64,000 nt of DNA from Chloroflexota bacterium (GTDB lineage: Bacteria > Chloroflexota > UBA11872 > VXOZ01), in the NCBI GenBank assembly GCA_963662335.2, contig CAXXVD010000001.1, positions 224,001 to 288,000 on the forward strand, given 5' to 3'. Numbering within the stretch: position 1 is the stretch's first letter; every line of letters starts with the position of its first letter. Below the pieces are notes generated by a model. That model saw nothing but the letters and a program-made list of their open reading frames with translations, ran no database searches and was not told the origin of the DNA. Shown in pieces: positions 34,338 to 41,154 of this stretch. The position numbers and the translations under genes are program-made.

Positions 34338-34698
34338 AGCAGAACTCTCCTTGTATCGGGCCTGTAGTCTCCGCTTGCATTGGTAAGCGCGGCCGCCGTG
34401 TTGTTGATGATTCGTCGCATTGAAGAGAATACCCTACGCGGCCCGGCGCTTCCCGCGCGCGCTCTTGCCTTGACGCGCGGCGCGAGTCCGTGACAGAATG
34501 CCATCTGTGAGAGTAGCTTGCGCGGGCCCTGCCTTGCGCCGCCGGCGCTGCTCTCCGGCTACGCGCATTCGCCCGCGCGCGGCTTTTTTCAATGCAACGT
34601 GACCCAAAGACACCTTCCGCGCCGCAATGGCCATGGGCTGGCGGTGACGGCATTACATAGTTCTACCGACTAGAAAGACGCTAACGAGGAGGCGCTTG

Positions 34699-37600
34699 GT
34701 GGCCGGGTTCAAGGATGTCAGCAGCAACCTCGACTTTCCCAGTATGGAGCATCGGATCCTAAAGTTTTGGGAGGATACCGATGCCTTCAAAAAGCTCGTA
34801 GAGAAGAACCGCGACAATCCGCGCTGGTCTTTCATCGACGGCCCCATTACCGCCAACAACCCCATGGGCGTCCACCACGCCTGGGGGCGCACCTACAAGG
34901 ACGTGTACCAGCGCTTTAAGGCCATGCAAGGCTACGCGCAGCGCTACCAGAACGGCTTCGATTGCCAGGGCCTGTGGCTGGAGGTCGAGGTGGAGCGCGA
35001 CCTCGGTTTCGACTCCAAGCACGAAATCGAGGAATTCGGCCTGGACAACTTCTCCCGCGAGTGCCGCAAGCGCGTCGAGCATTTTTCCACGGTGCAGACG
35101 AACCAGTCCATCCGCCTCGGCCAGTGGATGGATTGGGACAACTCGTACTACACCATGGACGATACCAACATCGAGCACATTTGGCACTTCTTGAAGCGCT
35201 GCCACGAGAAGGGCTGGCTCTACAAGGGCTGGCGCTCCATGCCGTGGTGCATCCGCTGCGGCACCAGCCTCTCGCAACACGAACTGGTCGGCACCGACAC
35301 GTACCGCGAGGTCACGCACCCCAGTATCACGCTGCGGCTGCCCGTGAAAGGCCGCGCCAACGAGTATTTCCTGGTGTGGACGACCACGCCGTGGACGCTG
35401 GCGGCCAATACCGCGCTGGCGGTGCATCCCGACCTGACCTACGTGGCTGCTGAAGCCGATGGGAACACCTATTACCTATCCAAAGGCACGTTCGAGAGCG
35501 TGGGACGCGGCAAACTCACCGCCGTCCGCGAGTTCGCCGGCGCGGAGCTTGTTGGTTTGGAGTACGTTGGCCCCTGGCATGAACTGCCGGCGCAGCAGGG
35601 CTTTCCCACCACCGTCGTCGGCTGGGACAGCGTGGGCGAGGAAGAAGGCACCGGCATCGTGCACATCGCGCCCGGCTGCGGCGCGGAAGACTACGAACTC
35701 TCGCAGGAGCACGGCCTCCACGTCATCGTGCCCATCGACGGCGACGGCAATTACGGCGACGGCTTCGGCGCGCTCTCGGGCACGAACATCACCGAGACCA
35801 ACGAGCCGATCTTCGCCGCGCTGGAAGAAGCCTGTCTGGTCTATCGCATCGAGGATTACACCCACCGCTATCCCGTCTGCTGGCGCTGCGGCGAAGAGGT
35901 GGCTTTCCGCTTGGTTGACGAGTGGTTCATCTCCGCCGACGAAATCCGGGAACGGATGCTGGCGGAGAACCAGACCGTCGCGTGGGCGCCCGAGTACGGC
36001 CGCAAGCGCATGGACGATTGGCTCAACAACATGGGCGACTGGTGCATCTCCCGCAAGCGCTTCTGGGGCCTGCCGCTGCCGTTCTACCACTGCGCGGACT
36101 GCGATCACGTCACCATCGTCGGCACCGTGGCCGAGCTAGCAAAGCGCGCCGTAGATCCCGCCAAGGTGCGCGCCCTGCCGGAACTGCATCGTCCCTGGAT
36201 CGACGAGGTCACCATCCGCTGCGAGCAGTGCCAAAGCGAGACGCCGCGCATCCCGGAGGTCGGCGACTGCTGGCTGGACGCCGGCATCGTGCCGTTCTCC
36301 ACGCTCGGCTACCTGGAGGGCAGCAACGCGTGGGGCAAGTGGTACCCGGCCGACTGGGTGAGCGAAATGCGCGAGCAAATCCGCCTCTGGTTCTACGCCC
36401 TCGCCTTCATGAGCGTCACCCTGGAGGACGTGCGCCCCTACCGCAGCGTGCTCATCTACGAAAAGGTCAACGACGAGCACGGCAAGCCGATGCACAAGAG
36501 CCACGGCAACGCCATCTGGTTCGACGACGCCGTGGAGAAGATGGGCGCGGACGTAATGCGCTGGCTCTACTGCGAGAGCAACACGCAACAGAATCTCAAC
36601 TTCGGCTACGGCGTCGCCAACGACGTCAAGCGCCGGCTCCTGCTCTTCTGGAACGTCTACAATTTCTTCGTCACCTACGCCCGGCTGGAGGAATTCGATC
36701 CCACCAAAGTTTCCGTGCCGCTGGAAGTGCGGTCGCTGCTGGACCGCTGGCTCACCGCGCTGCTCCACAAGCTGGTGCGGGACGTGACCGCCGACCTGGA
36801 ACGCTTCGACGCCTATAGCGTCTCGCGGCGGATCAATGACTTCATCGAGCAGTTGTCCACGTGGTACGTGCGCCGGGGCCGCCGCCGCTACTGGAAGTCC
36901 GGCCAAGACCGGGACACGCTCTCCGCGTATGTCACCCTTTATGAGGCGCTTACCACGCTTACGCGCCTCATTGCGCCCATCATGCCGTTCCTCAGCGAAG
37001 AGGTCTACCAAAACCTGGTGCGCGCAGTGGACGGCGGCGCGCCGGAGAGCGTCCACCACACCGAGTGGCCGCGCTACAATGCGGCCCTCATCGACGAAGA
37101 CCTGCTGGCGCACATGGAATTGGCGCAGCGCGTGGTCAGCCTGGGCCGCGCCGCCCGCAGTTCCAGCAAGATCAAGGTGCGCCAACCGCTGCCGGAGATG
37201 CTGGCGCACGTCAAGTCCGCCGGCGAGCAAGCCGGTTTGGAGCGCCTACAGGAGCACATTCTCAACGAACTCAACGTCAAGGCGCTGCGCTTCGTCGGGC
37301 CGGAAGAGGAGTTGGTTACCTACGAACTCAAGCCGCGCTTCAACCTGCTCGGCCCCAAGTACGGCCGCCAGGTCAAGGCAATCGCGGCGGCGTTGCGGCA
37401 GAGCGACGCCCAGGCCGGCGCGCGGCTGGCTGCGCAGGGCGAGTCAATCGCAGTGCAGGTGGACGGGCAGACGGTCGCACTTCTGCCGGAGGAAGTGGAC
37501 GTGCAAGCGCGGGAGCGCGCCGACTACAGCGTGGCGACCGAAGAAGGCTACCTGGTGGCGCTCCACACCGAGATTAGCCCCGCGTTGGAGTTGGAAGGCA

Positions 37601-37869
37601 TGGCCCGCGAGTTGATCCACCACGTGCAGAACCTCCGCCGCGCGGCAGATTTCTCTCTCTCCGACCGCATCGTAACGTACGTAACGGTTGCCGACGGCGC
37701 TGACGGCCGCGCGAGCCTGGCGGAGATGCTGGGCGCACACAGCGCCGCGGTCGCGCAGGAGACGCTCTCCCTGCGCGTGGAACCGGCCGTCGCGCCGGAC
37801 GAAGCCCACCAGGAAGTCGTCGATCTCAACGGTGTTGCGGTGGCGCTGGGCGTGGCGCGCGCTTCATGA
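34699..37869 (+). CDS. ileS: Isoleucine--tRNA ligase, type 2, GXHH signature
   Basis: DGPITANNPMGVHH, WTTTPWT, GTGIVHIAP, DWCISR, PMHKS, long C-terminal region; AGGAGG RBS 6 nt before GTG 34699. Confidence 0.95.
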   Translation: MAGFKDVSSNLDFPSMEHRILKFWEDTDAFKKLVEKNRDNPRWSFIDGPITANNPMGVHHAWGRTYKDVYQRFKAMQGYAQRYQNGFDCQGLWLEVEVERDLGFDSKHEIEEFGLDNFSRECRKRVEHFSTVQTNQSIRLGQWMDWDNSYYTMDDTNIEHIWHFLKRCHEKGWLYKGWRSMPWCIRCGTSLSQHELVGTDTYREVTHPSITLRLPVKGRANEYFLVWTTTPWTLAANTALAVHPDLTYVAAEADGNTYYLSKGTFESVGRGKLTAVREFAGAELVGLEYVGPWHELPAQQGFPTTVVGWDSVGEEEGTGIVHIAPGCGAEDYELSQEHGLHVIVPIDGDGNYGDGFGALSGTNITETNEPIFAALEEACLVYRIEDYTHRYPVCWRCGEEVAFRLVDEWFISADEIRERMLAENQTVAWAPEYGRKRMDDWLNNMGDWCISRKRFWGLPLPFYHCADCDHVTIVGTVAELAKRAVDPAKVRALPELHRPWIDEVTIRCEQCQSETPRIPEVGDCWLDAGIVPFSTLGYLEGSNAWGKWYPADWVSEMREQIRLWFYALAFMSVTLEDVRPYRSVLIYEKVNDEHGKPMHKSHGNAIWFDDAVEKMGADVMRWLYCESNTQQNLNFGYGVANDVKRRLLLFWNVYNFFVTYARLEEFDPTKVSVPLEVRSLLDRWLTALLHKLVRDVTADLERFDAYSVSRRINDFIEQLSTWYVRRGRRRYWKSGQDRDTLSAYVTLYEALTTLTRLIAPIMPFLSEEVYQNLVRAVDGGAPESVHHTEWPRYNAALIDEDLLAHMELAQRVVSLGRAARSSSKIKVRQPLPEMLAHVKSAGEQAGLERLQEHILNELNVKALRFVGPEEELVTYELKPRFNLLGPKYGRQVKAIAAALRQSDAQAGARLAAQGESIAVQVDGQTVALLPEEVDVQARERADYSVATEEGYLVALHTEISPALELEGMARELIHHVQNLRRAADFSLSDRIVTYVTVADGADGRASLAEMLGAHSAAVAQETLSLRVEPAVAPDEAHQEVVDLNGVAVALGVARAS

Positions 37870-38028
37870 ACGGCGTAAAGCCGTGCGGCAAGAGTTGGCG
37901 GGTGTCGGGGCCACTCAGCGAGGCTTTGGCGCAGCCCGCACGCGCGGCTACCGCACGCGCAACGTGCTGAAAGCAAGAGGTGGCGCGCGCGAATCGTGCG
38001 CCCAAGATTACTTCGCAGCGAAAGGAGT

Positions 38029-38499
38029 ATGACCGTGCCTGAGAGTCAGAAAACCCTCCCCCGCGTTTTCAAGTGGTTCGGTGAAGGGAAAGTCGCCTCC
38101 TCCGGTTTCCCTGAAACCGAGGAGCAGTTGTGCGCGGTGGCGGAACAGGGCATCAAGCACATCGTTGCCGCCTCCCGCAAGACGCCGGATACCGAGACCA
38201 TCGAACGCCTCGGCATGACGGTCGACCGCTTCAGTGGCGTCAGCAGCGACGTGGCAACCCTGGACGCCGCCGTGGAGTCGCTCCACGCGGCCGCCCTGCG
38301 CGACGAGAAAGCCCTCGTCCACTGAGGCTCCGGTTTCGGCGGGGCCGGTACGGTCCTGGCAGGATACTTGGTGAAGCACGAAGGTTTTTCCCCGGCGGAC
38401 GCGGTGCAGGCGCTGCGCGATTTTCGCCCCGGCGACTTGAAAGGCGGTGAGGTGGACGCGCTCATTGCCGAGTATGCGGAGAGCCTCACGTCTGGGTGA
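38029..38499 (+). CDS. Dual-specificity-phosphatase-fold protein with in-frame TGA (38323-38325) at the catalytic Cys; candidate selenoprotein
   Basis: AAGGAG RBS; read-through gives VH-U-GSGFGGAGTVLAGYLVKHEGFSPADAVQALRDFRPG, collinear with the DSP/DUSP23 P-loop and following helices; terminator after the second stop. Confidence 0.75.
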
Positions 38500-38521: not shown

Positions 38522-38554
38522 AGAAGCCCGCTACGTTTGCCGTAGCGGGCTTCT
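38522..38554. terminator. Intrinsic terminator, probably bidirectional
   Basis: 14-bp stem AGAAGCCCGCTACG/CGTAGCGGGCTTCT, T-rich tail, between convergent genes. Confidence 0.8.
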
Positions 38555-38619
38555 ATTTCTTCGTTTGTACTGCCCTATCGCGGGGAAAAGCGTTTGGCCC
38601 GGCATTCATCTGTGCCGGA

Positions 38620-38835
38620 CTATTCGCCCTTAGTTGGCGTATTGGCGTCCGGCCCCCTGGCGCTGGCAAAGTAGCCTTCCAACAAACCTTCGATGCGGGC
38701 TAGCCGCTGCTCAATGTTAGAAACGCGACTCTCAAGACTAGACATTCTTCCATCCAGGCTGCGGATTTGCAGCATGAGAAACCCGCCGACCGCAACGCCT
38801 GTGACAACAATGGTTGCAGCAGATTCCCAGTTCAT
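38620..38835 (-). CDS. Small protein with N-terminal TM helix and coiled coil
   Basis: AGGAGAGG RBS; heptads LDGRMSSLESRVSNIEQRLARIEG. Confidence 0.7.
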   Translation of the reverse strand: MNWESAATIVVTGVAVGGFLMLQIRSLDGRMSSLESRVSNIEQRLARIEGLLEGYFASARGPDANTPTKGE

Positions 38836-39040: not shown

Positions 39041-40393
39041 CTAGCCCGTTGGCAAATCAGGATTCGGTTCCGGTCGCACGTGCTGCGCCAGAAACGCCGT
39101 CAACTCCCCAATCGGCACCCGTTCCTGCTCCATGCTGTCCCGGTGGCGCACGGTCACCGTGTGGTCGTCTTTGGTGTCGAAGTCCACCGTAATGCCGAAC
39201 GGCGTGCCCACCTCGTCCTGCCGCCGGTAGCGGCGGCCGATGCTGCCGCTCTCGTCGTAGAAGACGTCCCAGTGCAGTTGCAGTTCCGCCACGATCTCTT
39301 TGGCAATGTCGGGCAGGCCGCCCTTCTTCACCAGCGGCAGAATCGCCGCCTTGATCGGCGCGAGAAACGGATGGAAGCGCAGCACCACCCGGGTATCGCC
39401 TTTGGCGTCCTCGTCCTGGTCGTAAGCGTCCAGCAGAAACGTTAGCAGCGCCCGGTCGGCCCCGGCGGCCGGCTCGATCACGTAGGGCGAGATGTGCTCC
39501 TTCTTCTGCTCATCGTAGAAGGTCAATTCCTGGCCGGTAGCCTCACCATGGTTGCGCAGGTCGTAGTCGGTGCGGTTCGAGACGCCTTCCAACTCGCCCC
39601 AGCCAAAGGGAAAGTGATACTCGATGTCCCAGCAGTACTTGGCGTAGAACGCCAGTTCGTCGTCCCCATGCTGCCGTAACCGCAGGTTCTCTTCCTTGAC
39701 GCCGTACGCCGCGTACCACTGCCGCCGCGCCTCCAGCCAGTAGGCGTGCCAGCGGTCGTCCGTGCCCGGCTCGCAGAAGAATTCCAGTTCCATCTGCTCG
39801 AACTCCCGCTGGCGGAAGATGAAGTTGCCCGTCGTAATCTCATTGCGGTACGACTTGCCGATCTGCGCGATGCCAAAGGGCAGGCGCAGCCGCGACGACG
39901 TGAGCACGTTCTTGAAGTTCACGAACATGCCCTGCGCGGTTTCGGGCCGCAGATAGGCCACGGCAGAGTCATCCTCCACCGGCCCCACGAACGTTTTGAA
40001 CATAGTCAGGAAGCGGCGCGGCGCGGTGAATTCCCCGCCGCAATTGGGGCAGTCCTCGCCTTCCAGATGGTCCACGCGAAAGCGCTGGTGGCAACTCGTG
40101 CAATCAACCAGGGTATCGGCAAAGTGGGAAGCGTGGCCGGTGGTCTGCCACACGCTGGGATTCATGACCACGCCGGTCTCAATGCCCACCACGTTCTCGC
40201 GCGTGCGCACGGTATTGTGCCACCAGGCCTCGCGCACGTTGCGTTTCAAGGCAATGCCCAGCGGCCCGTAGTCCCAAAAGCTCTCGAAACCGCCGTAGAT
40301 TTCGCTGGAGGGATAGACGAACCCCCGCCGCTTGCACAGGCTGACGATCTCTTCCATAGTGTCGGTTTTCGCTGCCAACGTGATTCCCTTCAC
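39041..40393 (-). CDS. glyQS: Glycine--tRNA ligase, alpha2 type
   Basis: KRRGFVYPSSEIYGG, YLRPETAQG, FRQREFEQME, IEPAAG, IGRRYRRQDEVGTP. Confidence 0.95.
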   Translation of the reverse strand: MKGITLAAKTDTMEEIVSLCKRRGFVYPSSEIYGGFESFWDYGPLGIALKRNVREAWWHNTVRTRENVVGIETGVVMNPSVWQTTGHASHFADTLVDCTSCHQRFRVDHLEGEDCPNCGGEFTAPRRFLTMFKTFVGPVEDDSAVAYLRPETAQGMFVNFKNVLTSSRLRLPFGIAQIGKSYRNEITTGNFIFRQREFEQMELEFFCEPGTDDRWHAYWLEARRQWYAAYGVKEENLRLRQHGDDELAFYAKYCWDIEYHFPFGWGELEGVSNRTDYDLRNHGEATGQELTFYDEQKKEHISPYVIEPAAGADRALLTFLLDAYDQDEDAKGDTRVVLRFHPFLAPIKAAILPLVKKGGLPDIAKEIVAELQLHWDVFYDESGSIGRRYRRQDEVGTPFGITVDFDTKDDHTVTVRHRDSMEQERVPIGELTAFLAQHVRPEPNPDLPTG

Positions 40394-41154
40394 GACTCTG
40401 TCTTCAACGCGCGCATACGCTCCAGAAAGGGTGTGGTCTTCAAGTCCTGTTCCGCAACGTAGCGCACGAACGCGTCCGCGGCCTGTTCCAGTTCAGTGGT
40501 TGTGGCCGGATCGGCCTGCAGGCGCTCCACGCTAGGCAGCGGCTCCCGCGCTAGCCACCGTAAGCACTTGATGGCGCGCACCCCAATGCGCAAGCCGGAA
40601 ACGCCCCCGCAGGAGGCGCACACCACCCCGCCAACATCCGGGCGCATGCGGCTGCCCTTTGCGGAAAGCGGCCCGCCGCACTGGGCGCACGCTTGGAGTT
40701 GCGCCTGGTATCCCAGGGCCGCCAATAGCTGTAGTTTATAGGCAACCAGGACCAGCGGCAAGGCGGCGCTCGCCGCCAGCGCGCCCAGCGCCTTGACGAG
40801 CAAGACGAATTCCGCGTACGCCTCCACCTCTTCCTCGACCAGGAGATGCGCGGTTTCGACCGCCTGGTAGGCGTACGGCAAGCGGTCGAGTTCGGTGCGC
40901 AGTTCCGGAAAAGTCTGCACGGTCTCCGCCTGCACCACCAGGTCCAGGCTGCGGCGGCGCACCACGAAGACCTTGGCCAACGTAAAGAGTTCCAGGTGCC
41001 CCGCCATGCGGCTCGTCGGCCGCCGCACGCCTTTCGCCACCACGTTCAGGCGTCCCCGGTCGGGCGTGAGCAGCGTCAGACGCCTATCGGCCTCATAGAA
41101 ATCCGACCGGCGCAGCACGATCGCTTCCGCAATGTAGGTGCGTTCTTTCGCCAT
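40390..41154 (-). CDS. recO: DNA repair protein RecO
   Basis: AIVLRR..FYEADR, AKGVRR, CAQC...CASC zinc finger; overlaps the glyQS start. Confidence 0.92.
   Translation of the reverse strand: MAKERTYIAEAIVLRRSDFYEADRRLTLLTPDRGRLNVVAKGVRRPTSRMAGHLELFTLAKVFVVRRRSLDLVVQAETVQTFPELRTELDRLPYAYQAVETAHLLVEEEVEAYAEFVLLVKALGALAASAALPLVLVAYKLQLLAALGYQAQLQACAQCGGPLSAKGSRMRPDVGGVVCASCGGVSGLRIGVRAIKCLRWLAREPLPSVERLQADPATTTELEQAADAFVRYVAEQDLKTTPFLERMRALKTES

Follow-up and report, generated by a model that had tools for sequence, protein, structure and literature searches.

Natural selenoproteins are built mostly on thioredoxin-like and a few other redox folds, and the STYX-type pseudophosphatases are proteins in which the nucleophile has been lost and the phosphate-binding residues kept. 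The atypical dual-specificity phosphatases (DSPs) of the DUSP23/VHZ type are represented by human DUSP23 (2img and 4erc) and by CCaDUSP (25xa), an enzyme of a Chloroflexota phototroph that has been solved and assayed, and for which the available text of PMC13687992 assigns Cys97 as the nucleophile, Arg103 to phosphate binding, and Asp67 and Glu135 as general acid/base. Amongst the 119 prokaryotic selenoprotein families and subfamilies that a 2026 review lists with domain identifiers in its Table 1 (PMC13188914), the nearest in concept to the gene described here are the rhodanese-like and arsenate-reductase selenoproteins, in which a selenocysteine (Sec) nucleophile opens an anion-binding loop that sits at a helix N-terminus. 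The gene in question lies on the forward strand, at positions 38029–38499 of a 64,000 nt stretch of a Chloroflexota genome (GCA_963662335.2, contig CAXXVD010000001.1, positions 224,001 to 288,000; hereafter the window). Previously unannotated, it very probably encodes a true selenoprotein, decoded with Sec, that has a phosphatase fold and in which the helper residues of phosphatase catalysis have been replaced.

The frame contains a TGA after ...KALVH, followed by 57 sense codons (GSGFGGAGTVLAGYLV...AESLTSG) and a second TGA, exactly as a preliminary description of the sequence had claimed. Residues are numbered from the ATG at 38029, which makes Sec residue 99. The host genome (3.23 Mb in 5 contigs, 64.5 % G+C, 96 % complete) is one of 17 in the window's genus (g1), and orthologs were found by a six-frame search, with stops read through, both there and in a genus of another family of the same class (g5, 9 genomes). 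A total of 26 genes was considered in this way, with identities of 76–86 % in the 16 other g1 genomes and 44–48 % in the 9 g5 genomes.

With regard to fold, the read-through protein matches the Pfam families PTP-SAK (PF22784; 1.2e-14, 55 bits against a cut-off of 27) and DSPc (PF00782; 1.1e-9, 38.6 bits against a cut-off of 33.5), and is the only PF22784 match in the host genome. The best sequence matches in the PDB are CCaDUSP (25xa, 3.9e-16) and human DUSP23 (2img/4erc, 2.7e-14). An AlphaFold2 model, computed from a 91-row alignment of the 26 Sec proteins and 65 canonical single-domain homologs, reaches a predicted local distance difference test score of 91 and a predicted template modelling (TM) score of 0.86; its top Foldseek matches are again 2img and 4erc, with TM scores of 0.80–0.85, followed by archaeal protein tyrosine phosphatases. 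The modelled product is therefore a DUSP23-like DSP in fold. It resembles the DUSP23-type enzymes in length, in the architecture of the His-nucleophile-xxGxG loop and in scaffold residues, including F14, W16, P28, G41, Y113, R130 and R133, and in 2img, 4erc and 25xa the residue opposite the TGA is the catalytic Cys, bearing out the earlier proposal that the codon falls on the nucleophile. Unlike these enzymes, it has Sec for Cys, it has lost the Arg of the loop that binds phosphate (P-loop; Gly105 aligns with it), the Thr, the general-acid Asp, the second acid Glu and a conserved Ser and Gln, and it lacks the helix Cys of LACYLV. The g5 genomes (loci L056–L061) also keep a canonical Cys/Arg DSP paralog (VHCAAGLGRTGT, PVxDF), which is stop-free and 31–37 % identical, whilst the g1 genomes carry only the Sec form.

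Comparison of the active sites within the 91-row alignment demonstrates how far the replacement extends. The canonical HCxxGxGRTGT is represented in the Sec clade by H-U-G-[SAG]-G-[FY]-G-G-A-G-T, and both sets have in common His98, Gly102, Gly104 and Gly107, besides the nucleophile position and the scaffold residues. The nucleophile column itself holds UGA in 26/26 Sec-clade genes and Cys in 65/65 canonical homologs. At position 105 the Sec clade has Gly throughout (26/26) where the canonical proteins have Arg (65/65), confirming the Arg-to-Gly change that had been noticed at the outset, and the loss extends to the neighbouring Thr (position 106: Ala in 26/26 against Thr in 60/65) and to both acids. 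Position 72 is Ser in 25/26 and Asp in 50/65, respectively, whilst position 138 is Lys or, in g5, Pro, against Glu in 53/65. Two further columns are altered, with Asp at position 136 in 26/26 (Ser in 63/65 canonical proteins) and Val at position 142 in 25/26 (Gln in 63/65). In terms of CCaDUSP, its C97, R103, D67 and E135 align with U99, G105, S72 and K138. The general-acid Asp lies opposite Ser72 in two alignments and opposite Gly70 in the pairwise alignment with DUSP23, and is a non-Asp residue either way; the loop that carries it is about 3 residues shorter than in DUSP23 and CCaDUSP, in keeping with the shortening previously suggested. Like the STYX type, the Sec clade thus has a phosphatase fold with catalytic residues replaced; in contrast to it, the nucleophile is upgraded to Sec, and it is the binding and acid residues that are lost.

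The retained features, namely the fold, the His-Sec pair, the loop length and the glycine scaffold, could belong to a protein that is still an oxyanion enzyme with a Sec nucleophile, be it a phosphatase, an arsenate-reductase-like enzyme or a sulfo- or phosphotransferase, with Asp74, Lys15, Arg133 or His86 compensating. Sec forms of arsenate reductase and rhodanese do exist (Table 1 of PMC13188914), and the invariant Asp74 is close to the canonical acid position. We nevertheless regard this as unlikely, as the Arg found in every canonical homolog is Gly in every Sec protein, and the Thr, the Glu (the second acid in 25xa) and the Gln are replaced as well. Nor is there any invariant, clade-specific basic residue in the 26 Sec proteins: K15 is Gln in one, K138 is Pro in g5, and R130 and R133 also occur in the canonical proteins.

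A different chemistry is probable for this protein, because the other phosphatase residues have been replaced while the Sec nucleophile position has been kept, and we consider that the product is probably a selenol enzyme other than a phosphatase, with redox chemistry the likeliest. In the mechanism that we propose, the protein retains His98-Sec99 as well as the glycines that form the scaffold of the phosphate-binding loop, with the phosphatase residues replaced, and it is conceivable, if somewhat short of an even prospect, that phosphate-ester hydrolysis was lost and that the selenolate, held in a cradle of backbone amides, came to serve on its own as a centre of redox or transfer chemistry. 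Backbone amides and the helix dipole of the loop, which is glycine-only, would stabilise the selenolate, and an external thiol or thioredoxin would resolve a selenenic acid, or an Se-S or Se-X adduct. Most family members are Cys-free: the 9 g5 proteins are without any Cys, and in g1 an extra Cys, which is not conserved, occurs in 9/17 members, one of which (L036) has a second Cys in its C-terminal extension. The chances seem to us evenly balanced that this is the first natural Sec member of the Cys-phosphatase superfamily in the full sense, i.e. a Sec-only protein that does not transfer phosphoryl groups and in which peroxidase- or reductase-type chemistry is performed by a single selenolate seated in an anion cradle made of glycines only. 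Metal or metalloid binding and dehalogenation may be lesser possibilities; for the latter, a deiodinase-like attack of Sec on the halogen, or another soft electrophile, of an aromatic substrate occupying what was the phosphotyrosine pocket is suggested by analogy, and is very unlikely.

That the host decodes UGA as Sec follows from its gene content, as tRNA-Sec, selA, selB and selD are all present, and a TGA also interrupts selD and an FdhA-like gene. The tRNA-Sec scores 67.8 bits against a cut-off of 47 and is called by aragorn too, and selA, selB and selD score 562, 381 and 380 bits, respectively; the complete machinery for which the preliminary description advised looking is therefore in place. 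The selD gene, outside of the window at G000:C1:382996-383925, has its own TGA at C1:383026 (...LAACAG-U-AGKLGP), followed by a hairpin of 7 bp with a GUG loop that begins 33 nt after the UGA. The FdhA-like molybdopterin oxidoreductase (L108, G000:C5:266596-267045) has a TGA at C5:266710, in the context CNRT-U-HAPS, and a 6 bp hairpin with a GGUCU loop beginning 18 nt after the UGA; its score against TIGR01553, 82 bits, is far under the cut-off of 814. A candidate for a further selenoprotein was observed at G000:C1:724361-724885 (+) (L107), which has a hydrophobic N-terminal segment, a TGA at 724646 (...VVYSNF-U-GGSLAARP...), a hairpin with a GUU loop starting at +30, and sub-threshold matches to Pfam Thioredoxin_2 and Thioredoxin_9. 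A genome-wide scan for TGA followed by a hairpin with a G-U triloop returned 37 candidates, only three of which look coding by eye (the phosphatase-fold gene, selD and the thioredoxin-like candidate), and was rejected as a census of selenocysteine insertion sequence (SECIS) elements for being too noisy.

Shortly 3′ of the UGA in the phosphatase-fold gene is a hairpin of the SECIS type, C-GGGGCCG-GUA-CGGUCCU-G, the stem of which has 8 bp in g1 and 7 bp in g5, and the apical loop of which, GUA, begins with G-U and starts 22 nt after the UGA. Its core folds at −11.1 to −12.9 kcal/mol (−11.1 for the 19 nt core in the window's gene), and RNAalifold predicts 9 pairs across 38339–38360. Of these, one is C-G in 17 genes and A-U in 9, and another is G-U in 17 and G-C in 9; this covariation amounts to one compensatory event between two lineages, and as such is supportive but thin. 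The codons of Gly105-Ala106-Gly107-Thr108 are GGG GCC GGT ACG in 26/26 genes, and amongst the 44 columns where the amino acid is invariant and its codon degenerate, a single codon is used in only five, these being the four of the hairpin core and the His codon before the TGA. Codon choice differs in the remaining 39, six Gly columns with mostly GGC included, and the chance that five random columns amongst the 44 would include the hairpin-core four is 5/135,751. No common hairpin occurs at the equivalent place in the stop-free paralogs. The hairpins 3′ of the selD and FdhA-like TGAs are GC-rich and similar to this one, with GUG and GGUCU as loops. An RNA fold in this position, where SECIS elements sit, had been anticipated; the arms then proposed, GGCUCC/GGGGCC and CCGG/CCGG, are wrong, as they are not conserved, with the first arm reading GGGUCG in g5 and being unpaired in the RNAalifold structure. 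Total folding energy was likewise tried as a discriminator and rejected, because the stop-free paralogs fold about as well.

When compared with the consensus bacterial SECIS model (Zhang and Gladyshev), the hairpin agrees in all four of the criteria quoted for that model in section 5 of PMC13188914. It is like the bacterial elements of the E. coli fdhF type in being a hairpin within the coding region after the UGA, with a small loop beginning G-U and a spacing of 22 nt; it is unlike them in its very short triloop, its perfect, GC-rich stem of 7–8 bp, and its overlap with active-site codons. SelB carrying Sec-tRNA(Sec) would bind this hairpin whilst the ribosome sits at the UGA, and would insert Sec at residue 99.

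As the sequence data show only that the codon is translated, one might suppose that the UGA is instead decoded as Cys or Ser, via a tRNA-Sec-like tRNA, or by near-cognate read-through. Such a view could draw on an odd 87 nt tRNA with a four-base anticodon (ttgg), called by aragorn elsewhere in the genome (G000:C2:501869-501955), which may be a false call or an unusual tRNA. Given the complete set of SelA, SelB, SelD and tRNA-Sec, the TGAs of selD and the FdhA-like gene at classical Sec positions, and a hairpin that fits the SelB-dependent model, this is highly improbable, and UGA is not generally reassigned in this organism because TGA also terminates the same gene.

Evidence that the codon is translated at all comes from its conservation. 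The TGA is present at the aligned position in 26/26 orthologs (17/17 in g1 and 9/9 in g5), always after the His of ...[VIL]H, and each gene has exactly one TGA of this kind, with no other stop or frame break. Purifying selection continues beyond it, as the median pairwise ratios of non-synonymous to synonymous substitution (dN/dS) before and after the TGA are 0.110 and 0.125 in g1, and 0.172 and 0.188 in g5; the ratio between g1 and g5 is uninformative because synonymous sites are near saturation (proportion of synonymous differences, pS, of 0.64–0.70). Both results answer the comparison with homologs that had been recommended earlier. Three public assemblies from one study cover positions 38000–38441 and have 7–9 differences, none of which is at the TGA or the hairpin; thus the TGC or TGT that sequencing reads might have revealed is not what these assemblies carry. 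Finally, a scan of 185,579 species genomes for the Arg-less motif, in which TGA, TGC and TGT were all accepted at the nucleophile, found 26 sites. Of these, 24 are TGA, all within full-length family members in Chloroflexota or Chloroflexi metagenome-assembled genome records, whilst the 2 TGC sites are in frames of 17 and 38 aa of unrelated bacteria and were taken as chance. On these comparisons, the UGA at 38323–38325 is translated.

The same evidence bears on two readings in which the TGA is not decoded. If it were an ordinary stop, the functional product would be the 98-residue N-terminal fragment, or there would be two polypeptides, and there is indeed a TTG-started frame of 43 aa after the TGA, with one database entry (P0024) being such a C-terminal fragment. 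The break would, however, fall exactly at the nucleophile and split one domain through its middle, the downstream frame has no ribosome-binding site ahead of it, and the codons between the TGA and the TTG are conserved both as protein and as RNA, all of which makes this extremely improbable. A nonsense pseudogene or sequencing error, with the downstream frame open by chance, is a negligible prospect and is excluded by the sequence comparisons: although gene callers stop at the TGA, 25/25 database relatives are shortened and GC-rich genomes hold long spurious open frames, the TGA is retained in all 26 genomes and the three public assemblies, dN/dS after it is 0.10–0.19, no frame is broken, and the model, with high confidence, has the phosphatase fold completed by the part after the TGA.

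Several observations nonetheless weigh against a Sec-decoded enzyme of altered chemistry. The 26 genomes represent two genera only, i.e. about two deep lineages with shallow variation within each, and because of this both the conservation and the lone compensatory pair rest on approximately two deep lineages. The 26 nt hairpin segment folds at −14.9 kcal/mol with a modest z-score of −2.6 against shuffles, and over the same 48 nt the stop-free paralogs reach −13 to −21 kcal/mol, so that energy alone proves nothing. The hairpin also overlaps the most conserved protein motif, and the Arg and Thr losses lie inside it. The residues standing in for R-T-G-T are exactly those encoded by the four frozen hairpin codons, so that constraints on RNA and on protein overlap at the loop codons, and it could be RNA constraint, rather than function, that partly explains these two losses. 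Positions 72, 136, 138 and 142 are far outside the hairpin, and the changes there indicate that the functional shift is not merely a by-product of the SECIS element. Asp74, which is invariant and sits two residues past the canonical acid position, could act as a displaced general acid. Lastly, no neighbouring gene is common to the g1 and g5 loci and the neighbourhood offers no functional hint, and the redox mechanism is an inference.

Concerning distribution, the class comprises 98 species genomes in six families, with the Sec gene in 16/16 and 9/9 genomes of two families and in 0/72 genomes of the others at E ≤ 1e-10, whilst selA is present in 86/98. In a sample of 401 genomes from the phylum, a tally that includes one stop-free match (G264), the TGA form is confined to the window's genus. 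In a quick maximum-likelihood tree of the Sec and canonical proteins, a branch of length 1.08, with a support of 99 in the Shimodaira–Hasegawa-like approximate likelihood-ratio test (SH-aLRT), has all 26 Sec proteins on its one side, which is consistent with a single origin of the Sec form. Amongst the best 150 HMMER matches in a set of 1.84 billion representative proteins, 140 have HCx5R and 3 have Cx5R without the His; a further 6 are proteins of 96–99 aa that end at ...H, with 41–75 % N-terminal identity, and 1 is the C-terminal fragment P0024. Only two of these 150 matches have E ≤ 1e-30, neither of them a full-length Cys form, so that no Cys-containing ortholog was found. Three more distant, shortened representatives (P0007, P0013 and P0020; 41–48 % identity) presumably carry the TGA, judging from their end at ...H. 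In a set of 5.8 billion proteins, 25/25 matches at E ≤ 1e-8 end at the UGA (24 of 96 aa and one of 114 aa), and the only name on these records is hypothetical protein. A metagenome scan with an alignment of the N-terminal part (A1) found relatives in 1/596 candidate stretches (L105, 85 % identity).

No description of this family was encountered, in agreement with the statement to that effect in the preliminary description. Table 1 of PMC13188914 contains no DSP- or PTP-domain family, and the word phosphatase is absent from that paper. It is also absent from the main texts of BSepDB, deep-Sep and the 2022 review, whilst the BSepDB website and all supplements lie outside this scope and could hold the family under a generic name; a term search gave 0 occurrences in the accessible texts of PMC12013277 and PMC9312934. 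In the GOS paper (PMC2398784), as far as its accessible text goes, phosphatase denotes a PP2C domain fused to a peroxiredoxin. Amongst the papers searched, none combines selenocysteine with CX5R, and a scan against NCBIfam returned no selenoprotein model, only a partial match of 17 bits to PRK12361 (cut-off of 505). The rhodanese-like and arsenate-reductase selenoproteins differ from the present family in fold, in domain (PF00581 and TIGR00014/NF041106 versus PF22784, with the read-through protein, P0001, matching none of theirs) and in motif (UxxS, UxxG or UxxC versus HUGxGxGGAG in the Sec clade). Hence, whilst the recoding mechanism and the fold are both known, their combination, with Sec on the fold of a phosphatase, no ortholog with Cys found and the helpers of catalysis gone, is undescribed.

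For phosphatase enzymology, this family would be a natural experiment in which the nucleophile is kept, and upgraded to selenium, whilst arginine, hydroxyl and the two acids have been taken away. For selenium biology, it would be a family for which no Cys-form ortholog was found, and one in which the SECIS hairpin physically overlaps the active-site loop, placing RNA and protein constraints on the same codons. There is also a practical aspect, in that 25/25 close public protein records of the gene end at the UGA.

The features of the locus are collected in Table 1. The ribosome-binding site and the terminator placed after the second stop were both correctly identified in the preliminary description, and an AGGA or GGAG upstream of the start is found in the other 25 orthologs as well. 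As to length, the 156 aa given earlier hold for the frame from the ATG at 38029; however, the GGAG is only 1 nt from this ATG and 7 nt from the GTG at 38035–38037, with which the ATG of the orthologs aligns. Because of this spacing and alignment the GTG is probably the true start, giving a product of 154 aa.

Table 1. Features of the Sec gene and its surroundings (positions in the window)
Feature	Position	Strand	Basis or remark
ileS	34696..37869	+	1057 aa, C-terminal DUF5915
Shine-Dalgarno-like AAGGAG	38022..38027	+	read in sequence; GGAG = 38024-38027
N-terminal coding part, residues 1-98	38029..38322	+	frame from ATG 38029
Active-site loop codons H98-U99-G-S-G-F-G-G105-A106-G-T108	38320..38352	+	translation, alignments
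Sec codon UGA	38323..38325	+	TGA in 26/26 orthologs; aligns with catalytic Cys of 2img, 4erc, 25xa
C-terminal coding part, 57 codons	38326..38496	+	dN/dS as low as before the TGA; frame intact, without further stops, in 26/26
SECIS-type hairpin	38339..38360	+	core stem-loop 38340-38358, apical loop GUA 38348-38350
True stop TGA	38497..38499	+	orthologs stop at or near the same position with TAG, TAA or TGA
Intrinsic terminator (14-bp stem, 5-nt loop, T-rich tail)	38522..38564 (stem-loop 38522-38554)	+	only 3′ of second stop
71-aa open reading frame (ORF)	38620..38835	-	between terminator and glyS
Class II glycyl-type tRNA synthetase	39041..41154	-	Pfam tRNA-synt_2b, HGTP_anticodon; start overlaps end of next ORF
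ORF beside the synthetase	40390..41154		presumably recO-like, by look of sequence

In the g1 genomes the gene is accompanied by ileS in 16/17 loci and by glyS in 17/17, whilst the g5 loci have a GFO_IDH_MocA oxidoreductase and an Asp-protease-like ORF. A PADLOC search gave no match. The 71 aa ORF that lies between the terminator and glyS has no Pfam match, and its product has a hydrophobic stretch at the N-terminus, after which comes a heptad-like LESRVSNIEQRLARIEGLLE segment.

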